Origin: a virus
IMG/VR virus record: IMGVR_UViG_3300019468_000025
Location: 1 to 41,085 of that record
Strand: one strand, 5' to 3'
Length of the DNA stretch: 41,085 nt
Shown here: one piece after another, positions 14,068 to 32,759 of the stretch
How the letters are laid out: every line of letters starts with the position of its first letter
Numbering within the stretch: position 1 is the first letter of the stretch
Program-made: the position numbers and the translations under genes
Notes under the pieces: generated by a model
Told to the model about the DNA's origin: nothing
Database searches by the model: none
Seen by the model: the letters and a program-made list of their open reading frames with translations, nothing else

Positions 14068-14298
14068 ATGAAAAAGTTCATCAATCAAAAATTCATTAAA
14101 GCTATTAGTGTTGCTGATGACCATATCTGGGTAGAATACCTAGAACAGTATAATGTTGAATTTGAGGAGGTAGACCTAATTTCACAGTATCACTGGGATA
14201 GGAAGGCATGCCGTGAAGCTAAAGCTAATACTCATAAGGTACTACTACGTAGAACACCGGCCACTACCGTACCAACAGGGTATCTTCCATTAATCTAA
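14068..14298 (+). CDS. Hypothetical early protein (76 aa)
   Basis: A GAGGAG ribosome-binding site. Confidence 0.5.
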   Translation: MKKFINQKFIKAISVADDHIWVEYLEQYNVEFEEVDLISQYHWDRKACREAKANTHKVLLRRTPATTVPTGYLPLI

Positions 14299-14307
14299 AG
14301 TTTTCTA

Positions 14308-14336
14308 TTTACATTCTTCTTGATATGTGATATATT
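14308..14336 (+). promoter_or_regulatory. Early promoter P3 (TTTACA-17-TGaTATATT)
   Basis: The -10 is overlapped by a 14-bp perfect inverted repeat at 14322-14359. Confidence 0.5.
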
Positions 14337-14383
14337 ATAAATAAGATATATCACATATCTGGAAGAAATAAATAAGATTACTA

Positions 14384-14412
14384 TTGACACCATCCAAGAT
14401 ATATGATATACT
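14384..14412 (+). promoter_or_regulatory. Early promoter P4 (TTGACA-17-TGaTATACT)
   Basis: A consensus -35 and a TG-extended -10. Confidence 0.55.
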
Positions 14413-14452
14413 ATAATTAATCTAATACTTATATATTCTCAAAGAGGAGACA

Positions 14453-15200: not shown

Positions 15201-15236
15201 ACCCACATCATGTATTATGTGATGTGGGTTTTCTTT
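15201..15236. terminator. Bidirectional rho-independent terminator between convergent operons
   Basis: A 10-bp perfect stem acccacatca/tgatgtgggt flanked by T-rich sequence on both strands. Confidence 0.65.
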
Positions 15237-17301: not shown

Positions 17302-18239
17302 TAGATATCCTCATCAAGTTTTTCTTGGATATATTCACGTACTTTGTCTAAGTTCTTGCGGTCTTTCACAGGCATCTTAGCAAGGCTGATACCATTGTCT
17401 TTGGCGAATGAACGGCACTCGGATAAGTTCAATGTGAATACATCGACCTCATCTGAGTCTCCCTCCCCCTCGTCATCTTCTTCCTCATCGTCAGTTTCTT
17501 CTAACGCTTCTTGGATAGCGGCTAAGGCAGCAGATTTACGTTTCTTTTGCTTAGCAGTAAGCTTAATATCGTTCTCTTCTGCGAATTCTACGAGTTGCTC
17601 TAGGGGCATATCCTCTAGGTCTACATCGTCATCATCTTCCTCAGACTCTGTATCATCTTCTTCCGTTTCTTCGTCCTCTGCTTCTTCCTCTTCGTCTTCA
17701 TCACCAAGGGCTTCTTGAATAGCTTCTAGAGCAGCTGACTTACGTTTCTTTTGCTTAGCTGTGAGTTTGATGTCATTTTCTTCCGCAAATTCGATAAGTT
17801 CTTCTAAGGACATTTCTTCCAAGTCTACGTCTTCGCTATCGTCATCATCTTCTACCCCAGTAGAATCCAGTGGGAATACATCAGTTACACGAGAGCGCTT
17901 CTTGCCGTCATATGTTTCATGAGCGATAGTTACACCACAGTTGCAGCCTTCACATTCATCTAAGTTTAATTGGAATGCTTTATCTGGAACAGGTACACCA
18001 AGGGCGATAAGTAAGTTTTTAAGGTTAAATAAAGATTGTGGTAATAGACTAGTATTGTGATAGATTTTACTACCTTTTTGCTTGCCATCAAGTACTTTAA
18101 ATACCCATTTTAAATATTGATTGCCTTGCTGGGATTCCTCTACGCTTACTTCATCAACGGTTACAGCGTATTCACCTTCTGGAATCACACCACCAACAGA
18201 TACGTCTTTCATGTTTAGATTTAATACACGTTTAGCCAT
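17301..18239 (-). CDS. SSB-like (DUF669/gp2.5-like) protein with tandem HeH/Rho_N-like repeats and acidic linkers
   Basis: The N-terminal domain (EGEYAVTVDEVSV...YLKWVFKVLDG) is followed by two 68-aa repeats (DVDLEEMSLEELIEFAEENDIKLTAKQKKRKSAALEAIQEAL) with a degenerate third copy, and by poly-D/E tracts. Confidence 0.45.
   Translation of the reverse strand: MAKRVLNLNMKDVSVGGVIPEGEYAVTVDEVSVEESQQGNQYLKWVFKVLDGKQKGSKIYHNTSLLPQSLFNLKNLLIALGVPVPDKAFQLNLDECEGCNCGVTIAHETYDGKKRSRVTDVFPLDSTGVEDDDDSEDVDLEEMSLEELIEFAEENDIKLTAKQKKRKSAALEAIQEALGDEDEEEEAEDEETEEDDTESEEDDDDVDLEDMPLEQLVEFAEENDIKLTAKQKKRKSAALAAIQEALEETDDEEEDDEGEGDSDEVDVFTLNLSECRSFAKDNGISLAKMPVKDRKNLDKVREYIQEKLDEDI
17423..17831. repeat. Tandem direct repeat of 2 x 204 bp plus a degenerate third unit
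   Basis: ttacgtttcttttgcttagc recurs at about 17541 and 17745. The repeats encode the HeH repeats of the SSB-like protein. Confidence 0.6.
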
Positions 18240-18240
18240 T

Positions 18241-19023
18241 TTAGTCTTCTCCTGTCATTAATTCAACAATGTCCTTATAAGTAGGATTCACAATAGATTT
18301 AGGTACTTCGCCTTCGAGCTTAGGGTCCCGGCGTAGTTTAGTGATATATTTCGAATGTGGACCAAGTCTCATGCGGTATTCTACTACCTCCTTAGAGGTT
18401 ACTTTACCACCTTTCTTAACTTGCTTCACGGTCTCACTAATATAGGTATTACCAATCACACCGACAGCAGCATTTAGAATCTTAGCTACGGATGGTGATA
18501 CGTATGGGCCTACCTCTGGAGTAATCATGTTATCTTCATCATAATCCTCTACCCGGGTCTCGCGGTCTTGTGCCGTAAATACAATATTGAATGGTAGGTC
18601 TCTGAATAACATAAGCCAGGTCTTCATAAGGCCCGATATTTCACCCCAGCCACGTTGGCTGATAGTGCCAGTAGGTGCTACCTTCTTAGCAGCTAGTTCT
18701 TGTAGAGCTGTGACCGTATCAATACATACAGTCTTATACTTATCAGTATCTTTCAGGTACCAATAGAGCTCTTCGAATTCATCCCAAGACTCAATGGGTA
18801 CAACATAAGCATCCTTAGTCTCACGGATAGAGGTAGTGCCCTTTTCACGGATATCCACAATTAGGATGGGCCCAGGGCAACTAGCGAGGAATGTGGTCTT
18901 GCCAGTACCACTACGACCGTAGACAAGCATTTTGAGGTGATTCTCCACGTCCTTCACTGATTTGATACGGTCAGCTATCGGATGGCTCACTGTCGGCTTC
19001 CTCGCCTTCGTCTTTACTCTCAT
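18241..19023 (-). CDS. Sak4-like RecA-family ATPase (AAA_24)
   Basis: A P-loop LVYGRSGTGKTTF. The start is taken at the second ATG (MRVKT), which has an AAAGGAG ribosome-binding site. Confidence 0.65.
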   Translation of the reverse strand: MRVKTKARKPTVSHPIADRIKSVKDVENHLKMLVYGRSGTGKTTFLASCPGPILIVDIREKGTTSIRETKDAYVVPIESWDEFEELYWYLKDTDKYKTVCIDTVTALQELAAKKVAPTGTISQRGWGEISGLMKTWLMLFRDLPFNIVFTAQDRETRVEDYDEDNMITPEVGPYVSPSVAKILNAAVGVIGNTYISETVKQVKKGGKVTSKEVVEYRMRLGPHSKYITKLRRDPKLEGEVPKSIVNPTYKDIVELMTGED

Positions 19024-19981
19024 GTGAGTATCTCCTTTCTTCAAATTCATATTCTTTAATATAATGAGTATCTAAACCCATCATCTCTGCTTGGCAGAGA
19101 CTATAAAACTCACAGTGCTCACATTCACGGGACAATAGCCGATAGGGAAAGTCTTTTAGGTATTCCATTTCCTTAGCTATGATTTGTAATTCTGAAAGCA
19201 ATATATCAACCATACCATCAGGCTTGGGCATGAATCTGCGTTCATAGAACTTATTTCTACGAGCATTTTCTAGCTCAGCTTGATAGTCATTTGGGTCCAG
19301 ACCATTATCTAGAATAGCTTGCATATAAGTAGCCTCGTCCGTTTTGATTTTCTTATTACGGCTGAGGGTACCGTTTTTTAGTAACTGGGGTACTGTCGGT
19401 GGTTTTGTGAGTAAGTAGTCGAATGCTACTCCAGTTGGCTCATATCCAAGTATCTGACATACACGGATATAGATAGCGGTTTGTAAGTCATTCATTCGAT
19501 ACCCCTCGGTAGGGATAGCTCTACCTACCGTCTTATGTTCACCTACCCACATACCTCGATTGTTTTCAAAGAGCCAGTCAATTCGTCCGGTAATGAATAC
19601 ACCAGGCACTATCTCGAATGGCTCTTGACCTTCTTTCACATTACCGAAGGACAACTCTGTGGCTATTGTGTGAAATTCTTCATCAGCCCAATGCTCTTCA
19701 TAGCCAATCATGATTCTTTCACATTCAGCGGGAAGGTTACCATAGTACTCCTTCTCCTCTTCCATGAGTTTATCATACTCGGCTTGGGCTTCTTCAATGA
19801 CTGGGTACCAATCCTCGCCTTTTAGATACAATTCTAAGCAATCATGGATAATGGAGCCCCTTCGTAGCGGCAGGCTTTTCCTCCGCTTCTGTAACTTCTG
19901 GACTCGCTTATAATGCCACAACTGACGGCAGAACTTCCAGTCTCTGATGGAGCTAAATGATAATATTACAGGTGGCTCCAT
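18971..19981 (-). CDS. PD-(D/E)XK exonuclease, Cas4/RecB-like, with an Fe-S cysteine cluster
   Basis: The motif GRIDWLFE...VGEHKTV, and a C-terminal CEHCEFYSLC paired with an N-terminal cysteine. Confidence 0.65.
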   Translation of the reverse strand: MEPPVILSFSSIRDWKFCRQLWHYKRVQKLQKRRKSLPLRRGSIIHDCLELYLKGEDWYPVIEEAQAEYDKLMEEEKEYYGNLPAECERIMIGYEEHWADEEFHTIATELSFGNVKEGQEPFEIVPGVFITGRIDWLFENNRGMWVGEHKTVGRAIPTEGYRMNDLQTAIYIRVCQILGYEPTGVAFDYLLTKPPTVPQLLKNGTLSRNKKIKTDEATYMQAILDNGLDPNDYQAELENARRNKFYERRFMPKPDGMVDILLSELQIIAKEMEYLKDFPYRLLSRECEHCEFYSLCQAEMMGLDTHYIKEYEFEERRYSHESKDEGEEADSEPSDS

Positions 19982-20044
19982 CTAGTCACCTCCTTTCATG
20001 CTTATAATATATCATGTATGATATGTGATGTCAATGGTAAAATT

Positions 20045-22381
20045 CTACGATTTAGAGAGCTCTTTAAGTCTTTTAAAGTTCACTCCGTTGATGTCATCAT
20101 ACACCACTTCACCTGAGCCCCAAGGGCCAGCCTTTACCTCAACGTCTATAGGCACAGTAATTTGTGTCTTAAAGACTTTCTCGATGTGTTCCATATCCGT
20201 CATGATGTCTACAATCACAGGTACCGCTTCCTCTAGATAGTCATTACGTACCTCAAAGAGAATAGCGTCATGGACAGTACCTATAATTTTAACTCTTTCC
20301 ATGTCTAAGGTGTGAGCGATTCTAACCAGAGAGAATATATTGAAATCAGAGCCCAACCCCTGTACAGGTGAGTTTATAGCTTGACGTTCAGCTTCTGCGG
20401 CCAGTTTTTTGTCGCTGCTGTATATATCAGGCAAGTTCCTCTTACGTCCAACTAGGCTCCTTACATACCCATATTTTTTAACAATACGCCTCATGCGGTC
20501 ATGCCATGTAGGTAAGGCAAAGTAGGATTCAAAGAATCTCTGGCGAGTCTCGATAGCTTCTTCCTCGGTGTAATCTACTCCATATTTATCACGGGCATAC
20601 TCACGGAATTTCTTAGCGGACATACCATACAGGAAGCCAAAGTTAACTGCCTTGGCTTTCTTACGTTGGTCCTTTGTGACTTCCTCGAGTGGTACGCCCA
20701 TCACATTGGAGGCAGTCTTCTGGTGTACATCAATACCAGTTTGAAAGCACATTTTTAGTGTTGGGTCACCACTCATGATAGCGGCTATACGTAGCTCAGC
20801 TTGTGAGTAGTCGGCTTCACATAATGTCCAGCCAGGTGGTGCACTAATCAAAGAGCGTACTAGCTTATTACGTGGCACCTGTTGGAGATTAGGGTCCTTG
20901 CAGGAGATACGGCCAGTCACTGTGCCATGCAGTAGGAAAGAAGGGTGTATACGGTTATCAATGCTGACCTCTTTCCACTTGGTAGGGAATTCCAGCAATT
21001 TCTTTTGCTCACGGTAAGACAATAACTCACCAATGATGGGGTGCTGGTCTTTCAACCGTGGTAGCACACTTTCACCATTGGTGCTTGGCTTACCTGATTT
21101 TGTGAGCTCTAATATCGGTAGTCCCATTTCATCATAAAGTAGCTTAGCTAATTGCTGTGAGCTATTCCAATTAATATCATCATGACCAGACAGTTCAGCT
21201 AATGTCTTCAAAGAGGCTTGCATACTACCAGAGAGTTGACTAATCACACTGTCTACTTTGTCTGGGTCTATGTATGCACCATGTAGCTCAACGTCTTCAA
21301 AAGCTCGTGAAGCGGGCATAATAAGCTTGTTAAACAATCTAGCCAAAGGCTTATCAGCCATAAGCTCCTTACGTTGTAAGTGATATAGCCGGAGAGTATA
21401 ATGTACATCATAGGCATTATATTTGGCTAGCTTTCTCATATCTAGCTCATTAGCACCGTGGTCTTCTAAGGCATAACTAGGTGCATTGAGTAATACAGTA
21501 GCCATAGCTTTGAGCCCATTAGGTGTGTTTTCATTCAATAGAGCAGAGGCTAACATGGTATCAAAGGTCTGGTGAAATCTCCAACCCAGTTTGGTATACA
21601 TCATTTTGTTATCAAACTTGCCATTTTGTGCTATCAATTTCTTGCCTTTTGTGACCTGTGAGACCTGCTCTAATATTTTGATAAGGTTTCTATCGTCAGA
21701 GGACCAAGGGGACCCGTCATGGTCAATTGGGATAACCCATTCAGCGCCATCAACGCCTAATCCTAAACAGGTAATTTTGACATCAGGGTCTAGTGGGTTA
21801 AGGCCTGTGGTCTCAATATCATAAGAGATAGCGTCAGCAGCAGCGAGTGACCTAATCATAGCTTTGGCTTTATTAGGTGTATTCACAAGAGTAAAATTAA
21901 GTACATTCTCATCTTCGATACGGCCACCGATGACCTTAGAGAAGGTGTTCCAATGTGCTTTAACAAGCTCCCACTTCTGTGGCTGTCTAAATGTGATTGC
22001 AGGGTCCATGCTGAACATATAGGTCCTATCATCAATAGTAGTATTCATACCAGCATTCTCTGTGATTTTACCTTTACCAAGTATAGCGGTCACAGCCATA
22101 GCACCAATACCAATCACATAATTAAATTTGTCTAATATAGGTACGATACGCTCCTTATATGATTCTTGTATTTGCTTCTTAGGTACCTTCTCAGTGACTA
22201 GCTGCTCACAGATATAGGCCGTAGAACATTCCTCAGGCTCTACACCTAATATGGCTATAAGCTCATTGAGTTGTTTCTTGATTCTACCAGAGAATGGTTT
22301 ACCTGTGGCCTCATCAGAGTAACCAGGTTGACCCCCTAGTATAAGTATATTAGAGCATTTCTTAATATCTAAGTACATCAT
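20045..22381 (-). CDS. Family A DNA polymerase with 3'-5' exonuclease and an N-terminal family-4 UDG-like domain
   Basis: ExoI ISYDIETTG; motif A DYSQAELRIAA; motif B KAKAVNFGFLYGMS; motif C VHDAILFEV. The N-terminus reads ILGGQPGYSDEATGKPFSG, which resembles the UDG-family-4 GEAPG...GxPFxG motif. Confidence 0.85.
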   Translation of the reverse strand: MMYLDIKKCSNILILGGQPGYSDEATGKPFSGRIKKQLNELIAILGVEPEECSTAYICEQLVTEKVPKKQIQESYKERIVPILDKFNYVIGIGAMAVTAILGKGKITENAGMNTTIDDRTYMFSMDPAITFRQPQKWELVKAHWNTFSKVIGGRIEDENVLNFTLVNTPNKAKAMIRSLAAADAISYDIETTGLNPLDPDVKITCLGLGVDGAEWVIPIDHDGSPWSSDDRNLIKILEQVSQVTKGKKLIAQNGKFDNKMMYTKLGWRFHQTFDTMLASALLNENTPNGLKAMATVLLNAPSYALEDHGANELDMRKLAKYNAYDVHYTLRLYHLQRKELMADKPLARLFNKLIMPASRAFEDVELHGAYIDPDKVDSVISQLSGSMQASLKTLAELSGHDDINWNSSQQLAKLLYDEMGLPILELTKSGKPSTNGESVLPRLKDQHPIIGELLSYREQKKLLEFPTKWKEVSIDNRIHPSFLLHGTVTGRISCKDPNLQQVPRNKLVRSLISAPPGWTLCEADYSQAELRIAAIMSGDPTLKMCFQTGIDVHQKTASNVMGVPLEEVTKDQRKKAKAVNFGFLYGMSAKKFREYARDKYGVDYTEEEAIETRQRFFESYFALPTWHDRMRRIVKKYGYVRSLVGRKRNLPDIYSSDKKLAAEAERQAINSPVQGLGSDFNIFSLVRIAHTLDMERVKIIGTVHDAILFEVRNDYLEEAVPVIVDIMTDMEHIEKVFKTQITVPIDVEVKAGPWGSGEVVYDDINGVNFKRLKELSKS

Positions 22382-22797
22382 CTTACCACCTCGATACCAG
22401 CATACACAAGAGTTCTATAACCATTGTGCTTGCCATTGTATTCACTCATAATCACTACTTTCTTTACTCCCGCATTGATAAGTAGCTTAGCACAAGAGTG
22501 ACATGGGCATACAGTCACATAGCATGTAGAGCCTTCGAGAGCGATACCTTTCCGAGCGGCATAGCTAATAGCCGAGGCCTCTGCATGAAGAGCATTAGTA
22601 CAGTGGTGGTCACTGTCTTCTTGACAGCCAACTTCTGTACAATGTGGCATACCAGAGGGAGCACCATTGTAGCCCGTACATACGATTCTACCATCTAGTG
22701 TGAATACTGCCCCAACTTGAAGTTTAGGGCAGGTACCACGTTTGGACACAAGTTGAGCTATTTCTTTGTATAGTTCATCTCGTGCAATTCTTTCCAT
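22378..22797 (-). CDS. dCMP deaminase (cytidine/deoxycytidylate deaminase zinc-binding fold)
   Basis: HAEASAI and CPCHSCAKLL motifs. Confidence 0.8.
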   Translation of the reverse strand: MERIARDELYKEIAQLVSKRGTCPKLQVGAVFTLDGRIVCTGYNGAPSGMPHCTEVGCQEDSDHHCTNALHAEASAISYAARKGIALEGSTCYVTVCPCHSCAKLLINAGVKKVVIMSEYNGKHNGYRTLVYAGIEVVR

Positions 22798-23480
22798 TAG
22801 AATACTCCTTTGATATCCTTAATGAATACATGGAGAGAGCCTATCCAGTGAGTAAATACACCCGGCCTTATTCCAAGCTTTTTAGCTATATGATGTTGCA
22901 TAAGTACGGCTAAATACACATCATTATTGAAATGTGTAGCGAAGTCACTAGAGCGCTGTAGGTAGGTGATATTAAGCTTCCCTTTACGTATTTGGAATTG
23001 ATAACCAAGAGTACAAGGTACACGAGATACACCACCTGTTTTAGTGATATCTTCCGGAGTCCAGACAGACATATAGGCTTGTCGGCTATACATATCATTT
23101 TCAAGGGTAGACACTACACGGTCTATTTGATTGAAGTCACTGATGCGGTCAGGGTAAGTATAACCAAACTTGCCTTCATCGTCTAGGAAATCGTCCCATA
23201 CGTCTTTACGTAGTCTATAGGCTTCACCTGGATTCATGTGCTTACCAGAGATACGCTCCTGGAACTCAGCATCTGCCCATGGCTGTGTTGGTTGCATTTC
23301 AGAAGGGTTACTTGTATCATACACACAGTACATATAGTTCTGGAGCTCCTTAGTGGCCATCTGTGGGTCATCGCCAATATATTTATCTTGGTAGGTTTGT
23401 GTATGTACACCGATACCCATCTCAGCTAAATCACGTCTTACCTCTGAGCGTACTTCTCTAAAATCTTGGTATATTCTCAT
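22797..23480 (-). CDS. Thymidylate-synthase-fold protein (ThyA or dNMP hydroxymethylase family), divergent and short
   Basis: The C-terminal half aligns with the ThyA core (VPCTLGYQFQIRKGKLNITYLQRSSDF...GSLHVF against PCH..QFYV.DGKLSCQLYQRS.D...GD.H.Y). The N-terminal half lacks the ThyA-like TGTGT loop region. Confidence 0.55.
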   Translation of the reverse strand: MRIYQDFREVRSEVRRDLAEMGIGVHTQTYQDKYIGDDPQMATKELQNYMYCVYDTSNPSEMQPTQPWADAEFQERISGKHMNPGEAYRLRKDVWDDFLDDEGKFGYTYPDRISDFNQIDRVVSTLENDMYSRQAYMSVWTPEDITKTGGVSRVPCTLGYQFQIRKGKLNITYLQRSSDFATHFNNDVYLAVLMQHHIAKKLGIRPGVFTHWIGSLHVFIKDIKGVF

Positions 23481-24241
23481 TTGATATATCCTTCTTTCTT
23501 TAATACTTTATAGCAGTAATCTAAATCATCACAATATGAGTAGTAGAATTCATGCATACGTCTTTGGGCACGGAATTTATCCTGGTGCTCTGGGTCAAGA
23601 CTCGCATGGTGACCAATACAGTAAAGCATCTTATGTCTCCAATAGTCATGTGGGCATTTAACCACAAAATCCATAACCTCTTTGGCCGGCATGAATTGAA
23701 ATAGTAAGATAGTGAATAGTCCTTGACTATAGGCAGACCCGAACGTAAAGTCTACATATTGTAGCTCTTTCCCTTTGATAAGTGGCGGTATGATATTATG
23801 ATGGAGCCAATATAGGTCAGCACCGAACTTCTGGATAATCTCAGTAGAACGGTAATTCAGGAATACCCATGCTCTCTTCTTATCTACCACAAGAGTTAAG
23901 TTGTTTAAGCAATACCCTTGGGACTTAGCTCTTTTAGGTTTGTGACCAAAGTCAAATGTCAAGATACTAGCGCCCATATCACTCCTGAGGTCAAGCTTAT
24001 CTAGGAACATTTGATAGCGTTCTTTATCTAAGTAGTTCCGTTCAAGATGTTTTATCTTGCTTTCATTACTACTATAGGATAAGTCCACAAGGTCATGTGA
24101 GCACCCTTCTAGCCAGTCATCACCGGGTATTCTAAATCTATGGCCAATACGTAGCTTCGTGAGCCCCTTTACAATCATGGGCTCCGAGCTATCATAGGCT
24201 AAGTCTTTAATTTGTTGTAGCCAATGTTCCGTAATGTTCAT
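23477..24241 (-). CDS. Hypothetical protein (254 aa) within the nucleotide-metabolism cluster
   Basis: No motif recognised. It is translationally coupled to both neighbours. Confidence 0.5.
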   Translation of the reverse strand: MNITEHWLQQIKDLAYDSSEPMIVKGLTKLRIGHRFRIPGDDWLEGCSHDLVDLSYSSNESKIKHLERNYLDKERYQMFLDKLDLRSDMGASILTFDFGHKPKRAKSQGYCLNNLTLVVDKKRAWVFLNYRSTEIIQKFGADLYWLHHNIIPPLIKGKELQYVDFTFGSAYSQGLFTILLFQFMPAKEVMDFVVKCPHDYWRHKMLYCIGHHASLDPEHQDKFRAQRRMHEFYYSYCDDLDYCYKVLKKEGYIK

Positions 24242-24891
24242 TAGTAGTTACTCCGTTGGCGGAACTTATTGACTTCATTCTTACGGAAATAGAGACCATA
24301 TACCTCTTTGGCTGTGAGACCAGCTCTTACAAGTACAGCAAGTAGCATAAGTAGTGCTTCTTTCATGTAGCCGTAGAACTTGTCTTCATCGGTCATCATT
24401 TGTGATTGTTTCCATGGCTTATTTTTGAGGCAGTTCATAGCAAGACCCACCTTCTCAATGATGTGGTATTCAGTAACCGGCTTCATACCCATCACATATA
24501 AATTTCCTAGGTCCATGAGGTAGACTAATAGGTCAGTTTTTAGACCGTCTGGTCGGTATGATTCAGGGCTAAGACCAGCTAAGATTTGTTGCTCAACCAT
24601 GAAGTGTAGAGCGTCAATCATTTCTTCTAGGTAGTGTTCATAGTGGTCTAACACATCACGTGCCTCAGTGGCTTCTGTGACTTCTTCTGTAATACGCCAA
24701 GCAAAGTCTTTCAATCGTGCTTGACCCTTAGAGTCATGGATATTTACAGGGCAGTCAGGTGTCTGGAGCAAGCCATTACGTTCTTCGATAGGGTGATATT
24801 TCACCATAAGAGCTGCTTGACGTTCGAAGATAGCTTCTAAGTAACCCCCTTGTGGGTAGTCTGTTGGCGCTGTAAAATCATTAATGTTCAT
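24241..24891 (-). CDS. All-alpha NTP pyrophosphatase, dimeric dUTPase/dCTPase-like
   Basis: EEMIDALHFMV and a C-terminal LYFRKNEVNKFRQRSNY resemble dimeric dUTPase motifs (vDiwHFil; YigKNvLNifRQ..GY). Confidence 0.45.
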   Translation of the reverse strand: MNINDFTAPTDYPQGGYLEAIFERQAALMVKYHPIEERNGLLQTPDCPVNIHDSKGQARLKDFAWRITEEVTEATEARDVLDHYEHYLEEMIDALHFMVEQQILAGLSPESYRPDGLKTDLLVYLMDLGNLYVMGMKPVTEYHIIEKVGLAMNCLKNKPWKQSQMMTDEDKFYGYMKEALLMLLAVLVRAGLTAKEVYGLYFRKNEVNKFRQRSNY

Positions 24892-24892
24892 T

Positions 24893-25396
24893 TTAGTGTT
24901 CCTCCAATCTGTCTAGTACACGTTGAGCATCTGGGTCTTTTGTGAAGTCATAATAAATCACATTATCCTTACCCAATAGCTTCTGTGCAGTTCTCATCAA
25001 GTTTCTATATGCTAATAAGCATTTAATGTCGTTCTCTTTGACACCGTCCATCTGTTCACGTTCATGGAATGTACCACGAATAACCTCTATACCTGGGTCA
25101 CAATAGATAACCAACGGATGAGCATCTACTAGCATGAATAGTAAATCTTCTAGGTAGTTGCTGATGTCACTATACCCACGTATGATATTGCCATAGACAG
25201 TCTCACTGAATATAGGGAATCTATCGTAGATTCTGCTGTCAGTGCGAGCTAGCTCATCTTTACACCATTGAACGTGTTCAGCACATGGGCCGGGTGAGAC
25301 TACTACCTCGTGATGAGGTAGGTAGCTCGACAGTTTTTTAACTAAGGTGGACTTACCGGTGTTGTCCATGCCTTCAATGATTATGAGTTTCTTCAT
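24893..25396 (-). CDS. Thymidylate-kinase-like dNMP kinase
   Basis: A P-loop IIIEGMDNTGKST and a DRF..S..VYG motif (the Tmk DRY motif). Confidence 0.65.
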   Translation of the reverse strand: MKKLIIIEGMDNTGKSTLVKKLSSYLPHHEVVVSPGPCAEHVQWCKDELARTDSRIYDRFPIFSETVYGNIIRGYSDISNYLEDLLFMLVDAHPLVIYCDPGIEVIRGTFHEREQMDGVKENDIKCLLAYRNLMRTAQKLLGKDNVIYYDFTKDPDAQRVLDRLEEH

Positions 25397-25754
25397 TGGC
25401 CTGGTTTTCCTCCTTAGCTTTTTCTTTCTCTACTGCGTTTATTACTTCTTTAAGTAATGGTACATCAAGATATTGGAGTGTTTCTAATGTGGCGATAGAT
25501 AATGGTACATTATTACCATTCGCAAAGCAAGAGAAAGCCTCCTCGTCACCCCGTTTATCTAAATAGAGTACGTTCTTTTGGCCACTAGCTGAGTATGCTG
25601 TCATAATGGCCTCTGCAAACTCCATATTATCTTCTGGGAATCGTAGTAAGAGTTGATACAACAAGGTATACATAGCATGAGCTATTTCTTTACCTTGTAA
25701 CTCCTGGTCAATAACTACTGTAAGATTATTGTCTTTCTCTAGTACAATCTTCAT
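25374..25754 (-). CDS. Hypothetical protein (126 aa)
   Basis: An ORF in the early leftward operon. Confidence 0.45.
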   Translation of the reverse strand: MKIVLEKDNNLTVVIDQELQGKEIAHAMYTLLYQLLLRFPEDNMEFAEAIMTAYSASGQKNVLYLDKRGDEEAFSCFANGNNVPLSIATLETLQYLDVPLLKEVINAVEKEKAKEENQANEETHNH

Positions 25755-25755
25755 C

Positions 25756-26070
25756 TTAACCTTCTTTCTGCCAAAGATGATTGGCGTTTTTTACATTAAA
25801 GTCACGGGTACTAATACCGCATACAGAGCAGTTTTTAGTACCTAAATGGTTGTTGGTAATGAAAGTACGTTCTTGACCACAGTATGGGCACCAGTACTTA
25901 CTACCTCTGTGCTTATAACCAACAGGCGGCTCACCATTGCCATCATTGTTAACTATCATAGCTCTGGTATTCCCATCTCTCATGCGATTAGCCACCTCTT
26001 GTGCAATCGGTAAAGCTAGGGGCTTTGTTTCAGCCTTCTTACCATTTCTTGATACAAATACCTTGTACAT
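25756..26070 (-). CDS. Zinc-ribbon protein (CxxC...CxxC), first gene of the leftward early operon
   Basis: The motif CPYCGQERTF...CSVCG, and an AAAGGAGG ribosome-binding site. Confidence 0.5.
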   Translation of the reverse strand: MYKVFVSRNGKKAETKPLALPIAQEVANRMRDGNTRAMIVNNDGNGEPPVGYKHRGSKYWCPYCGQERTFITNNHLGTKNCSVCGISTRDFNVKNANHLWQKEG

Positions 26071-26116: not shown

Positions 26117-26145
26117 TTATGCTCATATTATATCACCCCGAAAGT
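26117..26145 (-). promoter_or_regulatory. Leftward early promoter (TTTACA-17-TGaTATAAT on the minus strand)
   Basis: On the minus strand the sequence reads ctatttacaaattactttcggggtgatataat. Confidence 0.6.
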
Positions 26146-26176
26146 AATTTGTAAATAGTAAAATTCTACAAAATGA

Positions 26177-26205
26177 TTGACAATTTATAGTAGCATATTT
26201 ATAAT
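26177..26205 (+). promoter_or_regulatory. Rightward early promoter (TTGACA-17-TATAAT)
   Basis: Consensus hexamers with a 17-nt spacer, divergent from the leftward promoter. Confidence 0.65.
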
Positions 26206-26256
26206 GTAATCATACAACAATATCTATATTATATACATTATAAAGGTGGTGAGACA

Positions 26257-26427
26257 GTGCTGATAAGTACCAATGAAGTCGCTAAGCGCTATGGTGTAAC
26301 TAATCGCCAGGTGCTATATGCTATTCGTATGAAGAAGATTAAGGGTAAAAAAGTAGGTTGGTCATGGGTGTGTGATACGAGGTATCTACCTGAAAAGTGG
26401 CCCGTTAGAGGTTATAATAATGATTGA
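26257..26427 (+). CDS. Small HTH_17/excisionase-like DNA-binding protein (56 aa, GTG start)
   Basis: An AAGGTGGTGAG ribosome-binding site. The protein reads VLISTNEVAKRYGVTNRQVLYAIRMKKIKGKKVGWSWVC. It is not in the ORF track. Confidence 0.5.
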   Translation: MLISTNEVAKRYGVTNRQVLYAIRMKKIKGKKVGWSWVCDTRYLPEKWPVRGYNND

Positions 26428-28264
26428 TATTTTATTCAAAGTGTGGAACGCTCAGAAAGTGCATGGGTATGTAAGTATGAGCGAGAGGAACACTAACCTC
26501 TCTAGCACCGAGGATGGTTACTGGAGTGACCGTTCGTGGAAGTGGCCACAGGATAAAGCTAAGGTGCAAGAGTGGTATAGTGAACATAGCCAGAAGGACG
26601 GCTATGATATTTACTGGAGCCCAGCCGTGTATAGTAAGCCAGGTAGACACCAGCAAGATGTGATAAGTCACAATGTGTTCTATGCTGACCTTGACCCTGT
26701 GGACCCACGCACCATAGGTACAAAGCCAAGTGTAGCCTGGGAGAGCAGTCCAGGTAGGTACCAGGCTGTGTGGCTCTATCAGAATGACCTCAGTGTAGAG
26801 GATTGGCTCGCAAGGAACCGCAATCTTTCCTATGCTGTGGGCGCTGACAGAAGTGGCTGGGACCTGACCCAAGTGCTGAGAGTACCAGGTGGTAAGAATC
26901 ATAAGTATAAGCCCGTGGTGACAGGTAAACTCTTATGGCAGAGGTGGGACAACCTTGATAGTGTGCCAGAGAGTGAGGTAGAAGTAGTAGTTGATGAGGT
27001 AAGTACGCACGAGAACCTCTTGCTACGACTGCTCACTAAGTACAAGCGAGAGATACCGGCCAAGGTGAGTCGTATGCTACAATATCCACCAAGTCGTATT
27101 GAGCCTGGTCATCGCAGTGATATGCTATGGTACCTAGAGAGTGAACTCGTGAAGTCACAGATACCGCTAGAGGACATAGTGGTTCTTATCCGTGATAGCG
27201 CTTGGAATAAGTATCGTGGCCGCTCTGACGAGCAAGAACGTATCTACACAGAGGTCAGCAAGGTGTACCAACAGAGCATACAAGGTACGCTCCGTGTGAA
27301 AGAGCCTGTGGACGATGTGCTATCAAATTATGAGGACATCATGGGAAGCCTCGTAGATAGGCCTGGTTGGTTGATTCGTGATATATGGATGAAGAACAGC
27401 CATGGTATTGTTGCTGGTGAGCCTAAGACCTATAAAAGTACTATCACCACAGATATAGCCGTGAGTGTAGCGAGTGGCGCTAAGCTATGGGACAAGTATG
27501 AGGTAGAAGACCCAGGGCCTGTGCTTATCATACAGAACGAGAACGCCCCATGGATAGTGAAGAGCCGCCTTGAAGCTATCATAGAGAGCAAAGGCTTAGT
27601 GGGTAATGTCGTACAGAATGGCCGAACGCTCACTATCACATGGCCTCCAGTGTTGCCTATCTATCACATCAATAACAGTGGTTTCTCGCTCGATAGCTCT
27701 GAGGACTGTGATATGCTGATGAGTTATGTGGAGAAGATACGGCCAAAGCTACTGATACTTGACCCACTGTACCTGATGTTCGAAGGTGACATAAACTCCG
27801 CCAAGGAGTTATCGCCAGTGCTCCAGTTCTTGCTCAGTGTACGTGATACCTATGGGTGTAGTATCATGGTCATTCATCACTGGAACAAGAATGGCTCTAG
27901 TAGTCGTGGTGGGCAGAGAATGCTAGGTAGTGCAACGCTACATGGCTGGACTGATAGCTCGCTCTTCCTCAGTAGAGACGAAGGCGATGTAGTCATAGAG
28001 CGAGAGTTCCGATGCGCTAGCAGTGGTGGTAAGCTTGTCCTGCAGGTTGACGCTGACGAGGTAAGGTACAGGGTTAGGGTAGGTGAGCAGAAGGCTGACG
28101 GTGAGGATAGTGTGGGTGTTGTGCTTGACTATCTCAGCATGTACCCTGGTGGACAGAGGTTGTCTGACATCGTGCGAGGGACAGGCCTCACCAAGTATGA
28201 GGTCAGCAAGGTGCTCACAGGAGATAGCCGTGTGAAGAGGAAAGGAGCTCTGTATAGTCTATGA
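26420..28264 (+). CDS. Primase-polymerase N-terminal domain plus AAA_25 (RepA/DnaB-like P-loop) helicase domain
   Basis: A P-loop GEPKTYKST; LILDPLYLMFEGD...MVIHHWNKNG; and an N-terminal DIYWSPAVY...YADLDPVD primase-like region. The internal ATG at 26420 is taken as the start. Confidence 0.55.
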   Translation: MIDILFKVWNAQKVHGYVSMSERNTNLSSTEDGYWSDRSWKWPQDKAKVQEWYSEHSQKDGYDIYWSPAVYSKPGRHQQDVISHNVFYADLDPVDPRTIGTKPSVAWESSPGRYQAVWLYQNDLSVEDWLARNRNLSYAVGADRSGWDLTQVLRVPGGKNHKYKPVVTGKLLWQRWDNLDSVPESEVEVVVDEVSTHENLLLRLLTKYKREIPAKVSRMLQYPPSRIEPGHRSDMLWYLESELVKSQIPLEDIVVLIRDSAWNKYRGRSDEQERIYTEVSKVYQQSIQGTLRVKEPVDDVLSNYEDIMGSLVDRPGWLIRDIWMKNSHGIVAGEPKTYKSTITTDIAVSVASGAKLWDKYEVEDPGPVLIIQNENAPWIVKSRLEAIIESKGLVGNVVQNGRTLTITWPPVLPIYHINNSGFSLDSSEDCDMLMSYVEKIRPKLLILDPLYLMFEGDINSAKELSPVLQFLLSVRDTYGCSIMVIHHWNKNGSSSRGGQRMLGSATLHGWTDSSLFLSRDEGDVVIEREFRCASSGGKLVLQVDADEVRYRVRVGEQKADGEDSVGVVLDYLSMYPGGQRLSDIVRGTGLTKYEVSKVLTGDSRVKRKGALYSL

Positions 28265-29052
28265 TGACAGCGATAGGACGCCTAGGGTATAGGTGGGTAA
28301 ATGTCTATGACGACAGGTGGGAGTGTGAGGGCGAGGACTTACCTCGTCTGGTGATACCCGCCAACAAGAGTTATAGACCTGGTAGGTACAGGATAGGCAC
28401 AGTCTGCACAGATGGTGGCTTGAAGCGTCTGGAGGGTGTACGTGCCAGCAAAGGTACAGGTAGATACGTGTGGGTAGGTACACCTCTGCTGGCTAACATG
28501 GCCATGGCAGGTGTACAGGTGTTCACAATCACTAACTATGGTGATGTCATCAGTCAACCCAGCGAAGGTCACATGCCTATTGTGTGGGGTCACAGGTATG
28601 AAGAGCCACTGTTCGAAGGTATACTGAGCGGTCATTATCGTATAGAGGTTGATAGTCGTTGTAGGGTTAAGAACTGGTACCGAATCCTCAAAAGCGAGAG
28701 ATGGCCACAGAGAGCCTATAACGTAAAGCAATGGGGTGATGACTATAAACGGAAGATGACAGATGGCTATAAAGTTGCCTCAGCTGACCCACAAGGGCGG
28801 AGACGTGTCGAGGTGGTATATTTAGATGGCGAGGACGAGGAAGACGCCCCATGGACGATAATTCGCTATTTGAGGAGCGAAGGTTGGACCACAATACATA
28901 AACGAGGGAATCTGGTGCGTTGTACGGGCAGAGATGCTCCGTTCCTGTTGTGTGGTAATGCTGATTGGCATATACGGGACGGTGTCTACTACGTAGAGCA
29001 GGAAGGCAAAAATCGTGATTATTCACCACTGAGAATGGTGCAAATAGCATAG
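28261..29052 (+). CDS. Hypothetical protein (263 aa, R/W/Y-rich), GC-richer than the surrounding genome
   Basis: An ORF translationally coupled to the primase-helicase. No motif recognised. Confidence 0.45.
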   Translation: MMTAIGRLGYRWVNVYDDRWECEGEDLPRLVIPANKSYRPGRYRIGTVCTDGGLKRLEGVRASKGTGRYVWVGTPLLANMAMAGVQVFTITNYGDVISQPSEGHMPIVWGHRYEEPLFEGILSGHYRIEVDSRCRVKNWYRILKSERWPQRAYNVKQWGDDYKRKMTDGYKVASADPQGRRRVEVVYLDGEDEEDAPWTIIRYLRSEGWTTIHKRGNLVRCTGRDAPFLLCGNADWHIRDGVYYVEQEGKNRDYSPLRMVQIA

Positions 29053-29429
29053 AGGTATGATGTGATTTACCACCAAGACGCGAGCATAGGCTATAGAGTG
29101 ATATCTATGGCCTATTCTTTTTGCAGTCTTTAGGTAGGTGGTAAAGGTACACTGGGTGGTGTAGTGGGTGAGGTAACGCTCGCATGACCTGAGCGCCAAT
29201 CTTACGACAGGTACGGCATAGTGTACTTGCTGAGATGGCGAAGGTCCAAGTGGCCAAGTCAATTTTGTCCGTGTGCACTGTACATCGCCAGCGCTGGATT
29301 CTGTATTGGCGTCCCATCTTTCATCAGGCTCTAACGGTACTATGCGGTGTCGGAGCGTTTTTTCGAACATATGTAGCAAACAGGATTCGCCCACACTACC
29401 TCCGTAACTTCGCCGCTCATAAAATACAT

Positions 29430-29750
29430 TTTTTCCAAATTTTTCCAAACGATTTGTCCGGGACTCCTCGCCAGCCACATTGATAGCATGAACGCCAGTG
29501 CAGTCACCATTTTGGAAAAAATTTGGAAAAAAATGGAAAACTTTTTCCAAAATATTTTTGGGACTTTCGCCGGCGCACTCCAATAGAGAACGCCACCACA
29601 ATTATGAAATTTTTTGGAAAATTTTTGGAAAAAGACTGGCAAAAATTTTCCAAAACTTTTTCCAAAAATTTTTGGCCTCGAGGACTTAATCACACCAAAG
29701 GCAATTATGAATTTTTCGCACCAGGTCATAATTTTTTTGGAAAAAATGAC
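29430..29750. repeat. Iteron-like array of TTTTCCAAAA / TTTTGGAAAA motifs in both orientations
   Basis: At least 12 copies: 29430-29449 (two direct copies); 29511-29540 (three copies); 29543-29552 (inverted); 29612-29633 (two copies); 29647-29668 (two copies, inverted); 29733-29747 (one copy). Confidence 0.7.
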
Positions 29751-29810
29751 GTATTACTACGTAATACGATATACGTAATTTACGTTACGTATTTCGTACA
29801 TCGTATCAGT
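29748..29810. repeat. Cluster of TACGTA-containing palindromes
   Basis: acgtattac-tac-gtaatacg (8-bp arms) plus tacgtaatttacgttacgta, immediately upstream of promoter P5. Confidence 0.55.
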
Positions 29811-29849
29811 AGTACCCCACCAATCCGTAAACTACGAAGAATTTTCTAT

Positions 29850-29880
29850 TTGACACAAGACCACCCTCATATGCTATAAT
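29850..29880 (+). promoter_or_regulatory. Early promoter P5 (TTGACA-19-TGcTATAAT)
   Basis: It shares the 22-bp upstream element cgaagaattttctatttgacac with P6. Confidence 0.5.
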
Positions 29881-29917
29881 GTGAGCAATGAACTGATGAC
29901 ATAACTAGGAGGATAAA

Positions 29918-30130
29918 ATGGAGACTAAAATTTGTGAACTCTTTAAACCCAAAGGCTTGGTGCAAAACCAACCTGTGATGTACAACCGCCAAAGCAAGTT
30001 TATGAACGCTCGCTGGCTCATTGGTCACTATGCTTGCCAGATAAATGGTGTGGATTATGTGTACCTTGGTGGCCGTACCTCATACACACAAGAAGGCATG
30101 ATTGCTGTTGATGAGGTGATACCACTATGA
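29918..30130 (+). CDS. Small protein, paralog 1
   Basis: A GGAGGA ribosome-binding site. It shares W...HYA...G.DYV..GGRTS.T motifs with the next gene. Confidence 0.5.
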   Translation: METKICELFKPKGLVQNQPVMYNRQSKFMNARWLIGHYACQINGVDYVYLGGRTSYTQEGMIAVDEVIPL

Positions 30131-30500: not shown

Positions 30501-30534
30501 TTGGTTGTGTACAATGTAGCGAAGAATTTTCTAT

Positions 30535-30563
30535 TTGACACTACCAAAAATCAATGGTATAAT
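30535..30563 (+). promoter_or_regulatory. Early promoter P6 (TTGACA-17-TGgTATAAT)
   Basis: A near-identical copy of the P5 upstream element. Confidence 0.65.
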
Positions 30564-30612
30564 GTGAGCATAACCAATACTATTTGTTTAACCATGAAAG
30601 GAGGCAAACACC

Positions 30613-30963: not shown

Positions 30964-30992
30964 TTGACAGAGTTAAAAACTTATGATATGAT
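30964..30992 (+). promoter_or_regulatory. Promoter of the packaging and head operon (TTGACA-17-TGaTATGAT)
   Basis: Consensus spacing, lying upstream of TerS. Confidence 0.55.
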
Positions 30993-31042
30993 GAACTTGT
31001 ACCCGACAGGGTATTTTTTCTTTAGGATTGTGGGGTGATACT

Positions 31043-31543
31043 ATGAAAAAACGGCCTCGCAGCAAAAAGAGCAAGCGCCCTGAGGCAAATGTTATCATAG
31101 CACCTGAGACCGCCCTTCCCGCTCAAAATAGGTACAAAAATAAGCTACTTATGGACCAGCTTCCACCTGACATCATGGGCTTTATACTCGAACATGATAA
31201 CCTTGACGCTCAGCAGATGGTCTATGAAGGCATGATAGTACAATACACTATGATTGTGCGAGCGTTGCGATTCTTGACCATGTGTGAAGAAGCAGGCGAT
31301 ATCTACGTCTCTAAATACTTCGCTAATCTCATGCGTGCAATCAGCCAAGCAAATGCAACTCTTGCTAGTATGGCTGTACAATGGAAGCGTCTACTCGCTG
31401 ACGATATACTCAACGAAGAGCAACGTCTACGAGTGGCTAAGCTTCAAATGGAGATTAAGTTGCTAGACCGAGACACTGACAAAGGTAACCTCCGAGACCT
31501 TGTCAATACGCTCAAAGCTGCCATGGAGGTTGAAGATGATTGA
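31043..31543 (+). CDS. Terminase small subunit (putative)
   Basis: The start is at MKKRPRSKK, with a GGGGTGA ribosome-binding site. The N-terminus is basic. The gene lies immediately upstream of TerL and overlaps it. Confidence 0.45.
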   Translation: MKKRPRSKKSKRPEANVIIAPETALPAQNRYKNKLLMDQLPPDIMGFILEHDNLDAQQMVYEGMIVQYTMIVRALRFLTMCEEAGDIYVSKYFANLMRAISQANATLASMAVQWKRLLADDILNEEQRLRVAKLQMEIKLLDRDTDKGNLRDLVNTLKAAMEVEDD

Positions 31544-32759
31544 GTTTGGCAAATGGGGTCCTAAGCATTTGGAGTTCATATGCTGCCCAATTCATAAAGA
31601 TGCCAGAATCAACATACTAGACGGTAGTGTTCGTTCTGGTAAAACTGTGGCCATGATTCCTAAATGGCTATCCTACATCGAGCAAGGTCCACCTGGACTA
31701 TTGCTGATGACGGGTGTCTCCAAAGATACTCTCTATGATAATGTGCTCAATGACCTATTCGATACCGTAGGCCAAGAGAACTACACCTATAACCGTCAGA
31801 CCGGTGACCTGGTGCTCTTTGGCCGTAAGATTAAGGTCATAGGTGCGAAGGACGAAGGCTCCGAGAAATATCTACGAGGCAAAACACTTGCTGGAGCTTA
31901 CTGTGATGAAGTCTCACTCATGCCTGAGCGATTCTTCAACCAGTTGCTCAATAGAATGTCTGTGGCTGGCTCTAAGCTGTATGCTACGACCAACCCAGAC
32001 ACACCTTTCCACTACCTGTATAAAAACTTCTTGACTGATGAAACCAAGCTATCTTCTGGTATGGTTAAACGCTACCACATGCTACTAGACGACAACCCGA
32101 ACCTAGACCCAGAATACTTGCAATTTATCAAGAGTGCTTATACAGGTATGTGGTATAAGCGAATGATAGAGGGCCAATGGGTGAACGCCGAGGGCCTTAT
32201 CTATGATTCTTTCAATGAGTCCATGGTGTATGAAACTCTTCCTACCTGGGACTATAATGTGGACTACTTCATAGCGATTGACTATGGTACCACTAACCCT
32301 ATGGTATTCTTAGAGATTGTGGATACTGGTGATGACTCCTATGTAGAGCGTGAATACTACTGGAATTCACGTGTAGAGCAACGCCAGAAATCTGACAATG
32401 AATACCTCCAAGACTTGTTGAAATTCATGGGCAATGCTGATAAGTATACCGCTGTCATCATTGACCCATCCGCTGCTTCCTTTATTGCGTTGCTCCGTCA
32501 AAATGGCATTGTGGTAATCGAAGCAGATAATAGTGTGCTAGATGGCATTCGTCTGATGAGTACGATGTTTAATCTAGGCAAGCTGAAAGTGAATAAGTCT
32601 TGTACTAACTTCCTCCAAGAGTTATCCGTGTACCAATGGGACGAGACCTCAGCATTGAAAGGTATTGAGAAGCCTGTGAAAGCGAATGACCATGCCTGCG
32701 ACGCTTGCCGATACTACTGTAAGACGATTGTCCAAGAATGGAGAATGCCTAGCTTATGA
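31536..32759 (+). CDS. Terminase large subunit
   Basis: Walker A DGSVRSGKT and a C-terminal nuclease-like region. The start is taken at MIEFGKW, which has a GGAGG ribosome-binding site. Confidence 0.75.
   Translation: MIEFGKWGPKHLEFICCPIHKDARINILDGSVRSGKTVAMIPKWLSYIEQGPPGLLLMTGVSKDTLYDNVLNDLFDTVGQENYTYNRQTGDLVLFGRKIKVIGAKDEGSEKYLRGKTLAGAYCDEVSLMPERFFNQLLNRMSVAGSKLYATTNPDTPFHYLYKNFLTDETKLSSGMVKRYHMLLDDNPNLDPEYLQFIKSAYTGMWYKRMIEGQWVNAEGLIYDSFNESMVYETLPTWDYNVDYFIAIDYGTTNPMVFLEIVDTGDDSYVEREYYWNSRVEQRQKSDNEYLQDLLKFMGNADKYTAVIIDPSAASFIALLRQNGIVVIEADNSVLDGIRLMSTMFNLGKLKVNKSCTNFLQELSVYQWDETSALKGIEKPVKANDHACDACRYYCKTIVQEWRMPSL

Follow-up and report, generated by a model that had tools for sequence, protein, structure and literature searches.

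What is a dense array of short A-tract repeats doing in the genome of a lytic phage, more than a kilobase beyond the gene for its primase-helicase? The array lies in a 41,085-bp stretch of DNA (IMG/VR record IMGVR_UViG_3300019468_000025, positions 1 to 41,085; hereafter the window) that is the complete or near-complete genome of an uncultivated tailed phage, and together with an adjoining ACGT-rich palindromic core it occupies 29429-29800. An earlier note on this DNA, drawn from the sequence alone, had proposed a candidate replication origin or regulatory hub, served by a primase-helicase of the P4 alpha type. Comparison with relatives leaves an origin as the best-supported reading, although the assignment to the P4 alpha family proved wrong. 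We consider that 29429-29800 is probably the replication origin of this phage, laid out on the plan of self-loading initiator-helicase origins, and the decisive evidence is comparative, namely the linkage of array and palindrome to the primase-helicase gene. A role as regulatory hub may coexist with origin function.

The array is built from the motif TTTGGAAAA, which reads TTTTCCAAA in the opposite orientation and is present in 10 exact copies within 29431-29744, on the plus strand at 29511, 29522, 29613, 29624, and 29736 and on the minus strand at 29431, 29441, 29543, 29646, and 29658. Two degenerate copies stand in register with these, AATGGAAAA at 29533 and CTGGCAAAA at 29636, bringing the total to 12 and bearing out the count, in both orientations, given in the earlier note. 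Elsewhere in the window the exact motif occurs only once, at 13969, upstream of a small-gene promoter in the 13400-14450 block. With up to one mismatch allowed there are 21 matches, against 10.1 ± 3.4 in shuffled sequence, and none of 100 shuffles reached 21. All 7 occurrences of TTTT..AAAA in the window fall inside the array, every one with GG or CC at its center, and no other short-repeat cluster of the genome comes near the array in k-mer repeat score (76, versus 28 for the runner-up). Four clusters make up the array, in the orientation < < / > > (>) < / > > (>) < < / >, with a spacing of 10-12 bp within clusters and GC-rich spacers of 50-70 bp between them. Cluster 1 (29429-29450) consists of the TTTTCCAAA copies at 29431 and 29441; cluster 2 (29509-29553), spaced at 10-11 bp, of those at 29511 and 29522, the degenerate copy at 29533, and the inverted copy at 29543; cluster 3 (29607-29672) of those at 29613 and 29624, the degenerate copy at 29636, and inverted copies at 29646 and 29658; and cluster 4 (29730-29746) of the lone copy at 29736, which abuts the palindromic core. 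The core itself (29748-29800) comprises a 19-bp palindrome, CGTATTAC-TAC-GTAATACG, at 29750-29768, a 13-bp palindrome at 29773-29785, and TACGTA at 29786-29791, with TACGTAA at 29758, at 29772, and, on the minus strand, at 29785; the 19-bp palindrome and the TACGTAA repeats had been described correctly before. It is the densest CGTA/TACG cluster of the genome, with 12 in 80 bp compared to a mean of 0.5.

A literature search with the motif string returned only irrelevant papers (on shRNA and macrophages). Likenesses to the sites of CodY (T4-CWG-A4) and AbrB (TGGNA pairs), to UP elements, and to sigma-54 promoters were considered and set aside, as spacing or center does not fit and the host is probably Gram-negative. 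A second, far weaker repeat cluster, four copies of GAGGTGAA, is found at about 10650-11050, within a tail-fiber-like gene.

Does such an array accompany the primase-helicase in other phages? The genomic contexts of homologues whose primase-helicase is 39-49% identical were compared, 12 lineages counting the window. In 11 of the 12, the short-repeat cluster ranked first or second by score is found 0-4 kb beyond the primase-helicase gene, on its downstream side, in DNA that is non-coding or only doubtfully called coding; its repeats either occur in both orientations or are direct and spaced by about one helical turn. The repeat is TCCGCAG in MW202455 (8 copies, with the palindrome TAAATATATAGTCATATATTT between flanks CCTGTG/CACAGG), TGCGAGA in L032 (about 8 copies; ATATATATTTATATATAT), CTGYGCA in both L033 (about 10 copies; GTGCAC-TATATAAATATATA-GTGCGC) and L034 (about 18 copies; GACGC-TATATAAATATAA-GCGTC), GGGTAGAGA in L036 (4-5 copies; a 38-bp TA-rich palindrome), TTGCG(T/G)A in L037 (8 direct repeats; a 44-bp TA-rich palindrome), and GATCGCAAATA in L038 (3-4 copies in a short gap, where no palindrome was seen). 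TA-rich palindromes also accompany CTGGGAA in L039 (9 copies), GTTGCCAC in L040 (9 copies), TACATAAA in L041 (10 copies), and GCGCAAAAG in L042 (about 12 copies), in the last case lying between inverted iterons. The recurrence of the motif in related phages, which the earlier note had proposed to check, has a divided answer: the motif is kept in 11 close relatives, considered below, and each distant lineage has a motif of its own.

The palindrome follows the array in 10 lineages, TA-rich in the relatives and ACGT-rich in the window, and in L042, L033, and L034 there are inverted iterons on both sides of it. Six of the relatives' palindromes, folded as single-stranded DNA, gave fold z scores of -3.6 to -6.8. 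By position, the TACGTA palindromes of the window match these elements, and so they are not the side feature they had first been taken for. In most lineages, namely those whose locus reaches far enough upstream, the order is minus-strand nucleotide metabolism genes (and PolA where covered), a divergent junction, a small helix-turn-helix (HTH) gene, and the primase-helicase gene; the genes downstream of the array are unrelated between lineages, and its constant neighbor is the primase-helicase. By a rough, inferred estimate, the top array would fall by chance within a given 4 kb of a 12-18-kb locus with a probability of about 0.3 per lineage, which makes at least 10 coincidences very unlikely.

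The same gene orders bear on the idea of a packaging (pac) site, at which the small terminase would bind the repeats and start headful packaging. The large terminase of this phage is closest to pac-type headful terminases, the roughly 41-kb contigs look circularly permuted, in both the window and MW202455 terS is found 1.1-1.6 kb downstream of the array, and known pac sites, such as those of P1 and SPP1, are short repeats in bent DNA. However, in L034 and L041 the array is followed by opposite-strand genes that cut it off from the terminase, L033 has no terminase within 8 kb, and in the window four small genes and two promoters intervene between array and terS. Judged from these arrangements, the array is not linked to the terminase, and a pac site is very improbable.

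Is the array itself maintained by selection? Eleven related contigs carry the same region, giving 12 sequences with the window; the primase-helicase of these close relatives is 89-91% identical at the amino acid level, and identity of the 263-aa protein encoded next to it, in those relatives for which a comparison was made, is 74-89%. Within the array, nucleotide diversity (pi) is 0.024 where motifs lie and 0.111 elsewhere; it is 0.04-0.05 in the palindromic core, 0.05 in a GC-rich segment (29170-29428) immediately before the array, 0.29 in the terminator and variable stretch, and 0.15-0.33 at third codon positions of the neighboring genes. The motifs thus vary about 5-fold less than the spacers and 6- to 14-fold less than third codon positions among these 11 relatives, and motifs and core change at the rate of first and second codon positions in conserved proteins. 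By these rates, array and core are under purifying selection. Cluster 1 is unchanged in most relatives, and cluster 2 is essentially invariant in the 12 sequences, the sole change being 2 nucleotides between copies in L022 and L023. Sequence features expected of an iteron origin are found here: motifs selected as units, a 10-12-bp spacing, and an adjacent palindromic AT-rich core.

One variable copy is especially instructive about what is being conserved. At 29624 the center is GG in 3 of the 12 sequences and CC in 9, so the site is retained with its orientation reversed, and this flip removes a 26-bp hairpin that the window sequence could form, which favors quasi-palindromic protein sites over an RNA or a cruciform. 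It also bears on the notion that the stretch yields a gene product, whether a structured non-coding RNA or small peptides rich in K and F, of which MKFFGKFLEKDWQKF is an example. There are indeed open reading frames (ORFs) of 32-129 aa in several frames, and the inverted repeats could form long hairpins. Yet none of these frames stays intact in relatives, where 1-nucleotide indels or a changed stop codon interrupt them, so that reading from the ATG at 29603 would give 92 aa in the window but about 25 aa in the relatives; no Shine-Dalgarno sequence is present; the long hairpin is abolished by the GG-to-CC flip in 9 of 12 sequences; and Rfam at its gathering score gave no match in the whole window, while a search by E-value brought up only sub-threshold chance hairpins in the array. 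The earlier judgment that this stretch is non-coding and its small ORFs are artefacts of the repeat therefore stands, and a functional product is extremely improbable.

A different account would dispense with a specific phage reader altogether. In a wedge model, 29592-29650 is the most curved segment of the genome (z 5.6-5.8) and 29502-29555 the third to fourth most curved, both clusters lying within z 4-5.8; intrinsic bends are classic at iteron origins, ori lambda being an example. The phased A-tracts might accordingly be no more than curved DNA for a nucleoid protein (H-NS-, IHF-, HU-, or Fis-like) or for gyrase, a structural element that organizes or insulates the region, and a quasi-palindromic motif with flippable orientation would suit this. 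But curvature tolerates many substitutions, whereas the 9-mers are near-invariant with a center that is always GG or CC, and the motifs of several relatives are GC-rich and without A-tracts (CTGYGCA, GTTGCCAC, GCGCAAAAG), so that curvature is not the property that the module shares across lineages. A purely structural or host-factor role is, in our judgment, improbable.

What, then, would read the repeats? The earlier note had put forward both the primase-helicase and the small HTH proteins. The primase-helicase is a 614-aa protein encoded on the plus strand at 26420-28264, with a RepB'-type primase, a RepA-like AAA_25 helicase, and a predicted C-terminal winged helix, and it is our proposed initiator. 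Pfam finds RepB_primase (4.6e-08, 33.6 bits, cut-off 24.3), a primase of the archaeo-eukaryotic type, and AAA_25 (2e-26, 93.3 bits), a RepA-like helicase with a RecA fold; in a sequence search of the PDB the only matches, both weak, were RSF1010 RepA (1g8y) and RepB' (3h20/3h25). In an AlphaFold2 model of residues 495-614, built from 46 sequences, the last 50 residues have a pLDDT of 93-97 and the order helix-helix-helix-strand-strand. The top Foldseek matches of this C-terminal domain are winged helices (Zalpha, IclR/TtgV, MarR), with probability of about 1, target TM-score of 0.65-0.77, and root-mean-square deviation of about 2 Å. Some homologues match MarR_2, HTH_24, or TrmB in Pfam, and alignment with them shows a common C-terminal module. 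A single chain combining primase, helicase, and winged helix can thus be confidently predicted from these models. As the families found are RepB_primase and AAA_25, and not a Toprim primase with a superfamily 3 (SF3) helicase, the protein is not of the P4 alpha type.

No domain of the primase-helicase diverges more than the winged helix, which is 12-45% identical between lineages versus 42-58% for the rest of the protein, as expected if it follows a changing motif. L033 and L034, which have a common motif, also have a common SRR(R/K) start of the recognition helix; this co-variation is suggestive only, and we do not use it as proof. As a separate observation, the best structural matches of the winged helix (about 50 aa, roughly residues 560-614, encoded at 28103-28261) are to the Z-DNA-binding Zalpha domains, and the adjacent palindromes are largely alternating purine-pyrimidine; the likeness seen in the models may reflect only the minimal size of the domain. 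The other candidate, a 56-aa protein with a weak Pfam HTH_17 match, is encoded on the plus strand just upstream of the primase-helicase gene (26257-26427) and has homologues in the same place in L032, L033, L034, L036, and L038. Its recognition helix, R-x-VLYA-x-R, is nearly the same in lineages with T4GGA4, TGCGAGA, and CTGYGCA motifs. Since the helix stays constant while the motifs are wholly different, this protein is unlikely to be the reader of the repeats. For the primase-helicase, the predicted winged helix and the array linkage in 11 of 12 lineages both lend support to that role.

We infer from this set of features that the winged helix binds the repeats, that the core melts, that priming takes place at hairpins, and that the module is active as an origin. 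The twelve T4-GG/CC-A4 repeats would be iterons, and the primase-helicase of the phage itself would read them through its C-terminal winged helix. Because the repeats lie about one turn apart on intrinsically curved DNA, multiple subunits could dock on the same face of the helix, and these might then assemble into rings. The duplex would open at the adjacent palindromic core, whose hairpins could be the start signals for the RepB'-type primase on both strands, in the manner of ssiA and ssiB in RSF1010, and the primers would be extended by the phage PolA. A promoter lying 58 bp downstream could add transcriptional activation.

That promoter also supports the main rival, in which 29429-29800 is a control region and its repeats and palindrome are operator- or enhancer-like sites that time the promoter and the operon leading into the packaging and structural genes, either alone or alongside an origin. 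The promoter is of the sigma-70 type, on the plus strand at 29850-29880, with TTGACA at 29850-29855, a 19-nucleotide spacer, and an extended -10 element, TGcTATAAT, ending at 29880; it points away from the core into the gene at 29918-30130, and its hexamers are unchanged in relatives. The 58 bp run from the last TACGTA, so that the distance of about 40 bp given earlier needs correction. The module is thus directly upstream of a conserved promoter, a similar one follows the palindrome in L036, L037, and MW202455, and the next gene in MW202455 encodes a MarR-like winged-helix protein. Moreover, curved A-tract DNA is common upstream of promoters, and the palindromes of L033 (11075-11100), L034 (10545-10565), and L037 (7343-7386) hold TATAAATA, the T4 late-promoter consensus, in both orientations. 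Set against this, the repeats reach 100-420 bp upstream of the -35 hexamer, far past the usual positions of operators and activators; the downstream genes are unrelated between lineages while the upstream primase-helicase is constant; among candidate regulators none changes along with the motif, the recognition helix of the HTH_17 protein being conserved across different motifs; and the array is missing at 30535, where another promoter of this family lies. Transcription control as the explanation is unlikely, though it has to be taken seriously.

Two further observations concern promoters of this part of the genome. Those at 29840-29890 and 30525-30575 share the extended consensus CGAAGAATTTTCTATTTGACA...TATAATGTGAGCA. 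A third consensus promoter (30964-30992) is directly followed by a hairpin and T-run (30999-31020) just ahead of terS, a layout reminiscent of a promoter-terminator pair that needs antitermination.

Several results weigh against an origin at 29429-29800. In the window lineage the array does not adjoin the primase-helicase gene, as the earlier wording "just downstream" would have it, but begins 1.17 kb past the stop codon, with a 263-aa gene, a terminator, and the GC-rich segment between. In at least 4 lineages a sigma-70-like promoter follows the module, so that a transcriptional role fits its position equally well. L036 has the SRRA start of the recognition helix together with a different motif, and the co-variation of helix and motif is weak. 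The core is not pure TA, unlike the palindromes of the relatives, and as single-stranded DNA it is only moderately hairpin-prone (fold z -1.8 and -2.5). By nearest-neighbor energy the least stable duplex of the genome lies neither in the array nor in the core: both the divergent early-promoter region (26145-26260) and the 13400-14450 block melt more easily. No such array was present in the sequence examined of L035, a contig that ends just upstream of the gene and in which converging genes follow, nor in that of the more distant PMBT14, Tlacuache, and L026-L028, where the gene order is different. What had looked like repeat arrays in L026-L028 and Tlacuache proved to be acidic repeats within coding sequence. 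In L011 (Pseudomonas phage PMBT14), a 33-bp direct repeat, GGTGTCCCAAAGGAATTCCTCGGATTTAGTGAC, occurs twice about 130 bp apart (3455-3500 and 3585-3620), upstream of the divergent junction near the primase-helicase; it is an element of a kind unlike the arrays. The ease of melting of the early-promoter region makes it a rival site, and an origin elsewhere, in that very AT-rich divergent region at 26.1-26.3 kb, is the main way in which our explanation could fail.

To what known system would an origin at 29429-29800 belong? The self-loading initiator-helicases of Staphylococcus aureus pathogenicity islands, SaPI Rep and, fused to the primase, PriRep5, read short iterons through a winged helix at the C terminus; the iterons number 6-12, run in both orientations around an AT-rich center, and lie just 3' of the rep gene (PMC9371898). 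The arrangement here is partly similar, with 12 iterons in both orientations and an adjacent palindromic core 3' of a primase-helicase that has a predicted winged helix. The parts, however, are different. SaPI Rep is a 3'-5' helicase of the AAA+/MCM-like kind, whereas the helicase here is AAA_25 with a RepA-like RecA fold, and the PDB sequence search gave no match to SaPI Rep; the primase here is of the RepB' type; the iterons, which are A-tract quasi-palindromes of 9-10 bp, occupy 315 bp in four clusters and almost all stand to one side of the core; 1.17 kb separates the module from the gene; and the element is a lytic phage with its own PolA.

The families themselves, RepB_primase and AAA_25, are those of the IncQ plasmid RSF1010, in which RepB' primes at hairpins exposed by RepA (PMC8567376). 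By analogy, the logic of the RSF1010 oriV could also be shared, with iterons, helicase-driven opening, and hairpin priming on both strands (PMC8567376); the palindromes here would be able to form hairpins on both strands, and the proposed likeness to ssiA and ssiB is one of logic. In contrast to RSF1010, primase and helicase are in one polypeptide, the iterons are 10-bp elements in both orientations instead of three to four direct repeats of 20-22 bp, and no RepC homologue was found, the fused winged helix appearing to take its place. With neither RepC nor 20-22-bp direct iterons, this is not a full IncQ replicon.

Parallels in architecture are P4 alpha, ORF904 of pRN1, and Bordetella phage BIP-1, each a single polypeptide with primase, helicase, and C-terminal winged helix whose origin elements lie outside, 3' of the gene; the P4 alpha winged helix binds the origin repeats, and in pRN1 and BIP-1 there is a stem-loop 3' of the gene (PMC4234260). 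Neither the Toprim/DnaG-type primase and SF3 D5-like helicase of P4 alpha nor the prim-pol and SF3 helicase of pRN1 was detected here. The crr of P4 contains higher-order repeats of about 120 bp, each with several octamers, and these resemble the cluster periodicity of about 100 bp in the window array. Inverted sites flanking or adjoining an AT-rich palindrome that opens or extrudes, served by a helicase with its own origin-binding domain, are also known from herpes simplex virus (HSV) oriS with UL9 and from simian virus 40 (SV40) with large T antigen; L042, L033, and L034 show exactly this style of core, although the proteins are unrelated and the likeness is in logic only. The system would thus appear to work like the origins of SaPI, P4, and IncQ elements while being assembled from IncQ-type parts plus a winged helix. 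A bolder version, which we think distinctly unlikely, is an IncQ-like origin in a lytic phage at which a small, Zalpha-like winged helix both reads the iterons and senses cruciform or left-handed DNA in the alternating purine-pyrimidine palindrome, the extruded hairpins give the RepB'-type primase sequence-specific starts on both strands and so prime two leading strands, the adjacent promoter is switched on and couples late expression to replication, and each fast-evolving, lineage-specific iteron/winged-helix pair acts as an exclusivity or incompatibility code between co-infecting relatives.

Why should the array stand so far from the gene in this lineage? The intergenic gap (29053-29917) is wider than the stretch delimited in the earlier note and holds, in order, the terminator, the GC-rich segment, the array, the core, and the promoter. 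Before it, on the plus strand at 28261-29052, is the 263-aa orphan gene, translationally coupled to the primase-helicase gene, with a GC content of 0.51 compared to 0.42 for the genome, and the fastest-evolving gene of the neighborhood. Its protein has no Pfam or PHROG match, an exhaustive profile search found homologues only inside this phage group, and its AlphaFold2 model (pLDDT 46) is too poor to use; the idea of a RepC-like initiator finds no backing, given no Pfam or PHROG match and no homologue beyond the group. An intrinsic terminator on the plus strand (29086-29122), a hairpin followed by a T-run, closes the primase-helicase operon, and the sequence of its stem varies among relatives with pairing maintained. 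The 260-bp GC-rich segment at 29170-29428 is non-coding and as conserved as first and second codon positions of coding DNA. It is not a gene, with no ORF open in all 12 sequences and no codon periodicity (p = 0.25), and a structured RNA is unsupported, with fold z scores of 0.14 and 0.04 on the two strands and no match in Rfam; the alignment fold is nearly without covariation because the sequences vary too little. Taken together, the GC-rich segment and the GC-rich 263-aa gene look like an insertion between primase-helicase and array, and in L037 and L039 the array does come directly after the gene. An insertion would not, however, account for the conservation of 29170-29428.

On the plus strand of the genome, the small HTH gene, the primase-helicase gene, the orphan gene, and the long non-coding stretch are followed by small genes, terS and terL (31028-32759), structural and lysis genes, and a block of small genes with one promoter each; the minus strand encodes, at 15236-26070, a helicase, nucleases, Sak4, PolA, and a nucleotide-metabolism set. 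A search found no tRNA. In near and distant DNA searches of 50,697 phage records, neither the window nor the array region gave a match. Many contigs of about 41 kb (ENA, Logan, JGI) encode proteins identical to those of the window or nearly so, all of these contigs being metagenomic and none from an isolate. One contig of 71,000 bp with the capsid and portal genes of the phage (cluster members P0018/P0035) amounts to about 1.7 genome lengths, and reflects either the assembly of a concatemer or insertion into a larger replicon.

The nucleotide-metabolism set at 22378-25396 on the minus strand comprises dCMP deaminase, a thymidylate-synthase-like protein, a 254-aa protein of unknown function, an NTP pyrophosphohydrolase/dUTPase_2, and a dNMP kinase. 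It adjoins PolA, as the same set does in L030 and L032-L042. Such sets go with hydroxymethyl- or hypermodified pyrimidines in phage DNA, and a "pyrimidine hmase" is annotated in MW202455; modified thymine, if present, would leave the T-rich iterons heavily modified. The window has a single GATC (15356-15359) in 41,085 bp where about 117-127 are expected, and 3 CGCG sites against about 24 expected, an extreme avoidance of restriction/methylation sites. The stretch 12395-13335 encodes a short endolysin (134 aa) and, after it, two ORFs that overlap out of frame (12810-13259 and 12814-13335); these two resemble embedded spanins, which suggests a Gram-negative (diderm) host. In the 13400-14450 block, where the DNA of the genome is richest in AT and least stable, there is a run of small genes (59-76 aa), each with a strong promoter to itself.

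Experimentally known replication origins are available for very few phages, and for none in this uncultivated group, which is nonetheless widespread, with well over a hundred metagenomic contigs, some from human-microbiome samples. For the large family of phages with a RepB'-RepA-winged-helix protein, which counts at least 838 homologues, the comparison offers a simple, portable rule: search the 0-4 kb downstream of the gene for an iteron array with a TA-rich palindrome after it. Once cloned, such origins could be put to use as vector parts or as resistance elements that act by phage-specific titration (PER-type), and the roughly dozen natural iteron/winged-helix pairs would be material for work on the evolution of DNA-recognition specificity. 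For the biology of the group itself, the primase-helicase and its probable origin would represent a third, independent build of the one-polypeptide initiator-helicase-primase, made from IncQ-type parts and not from those of P4 or SaPI.

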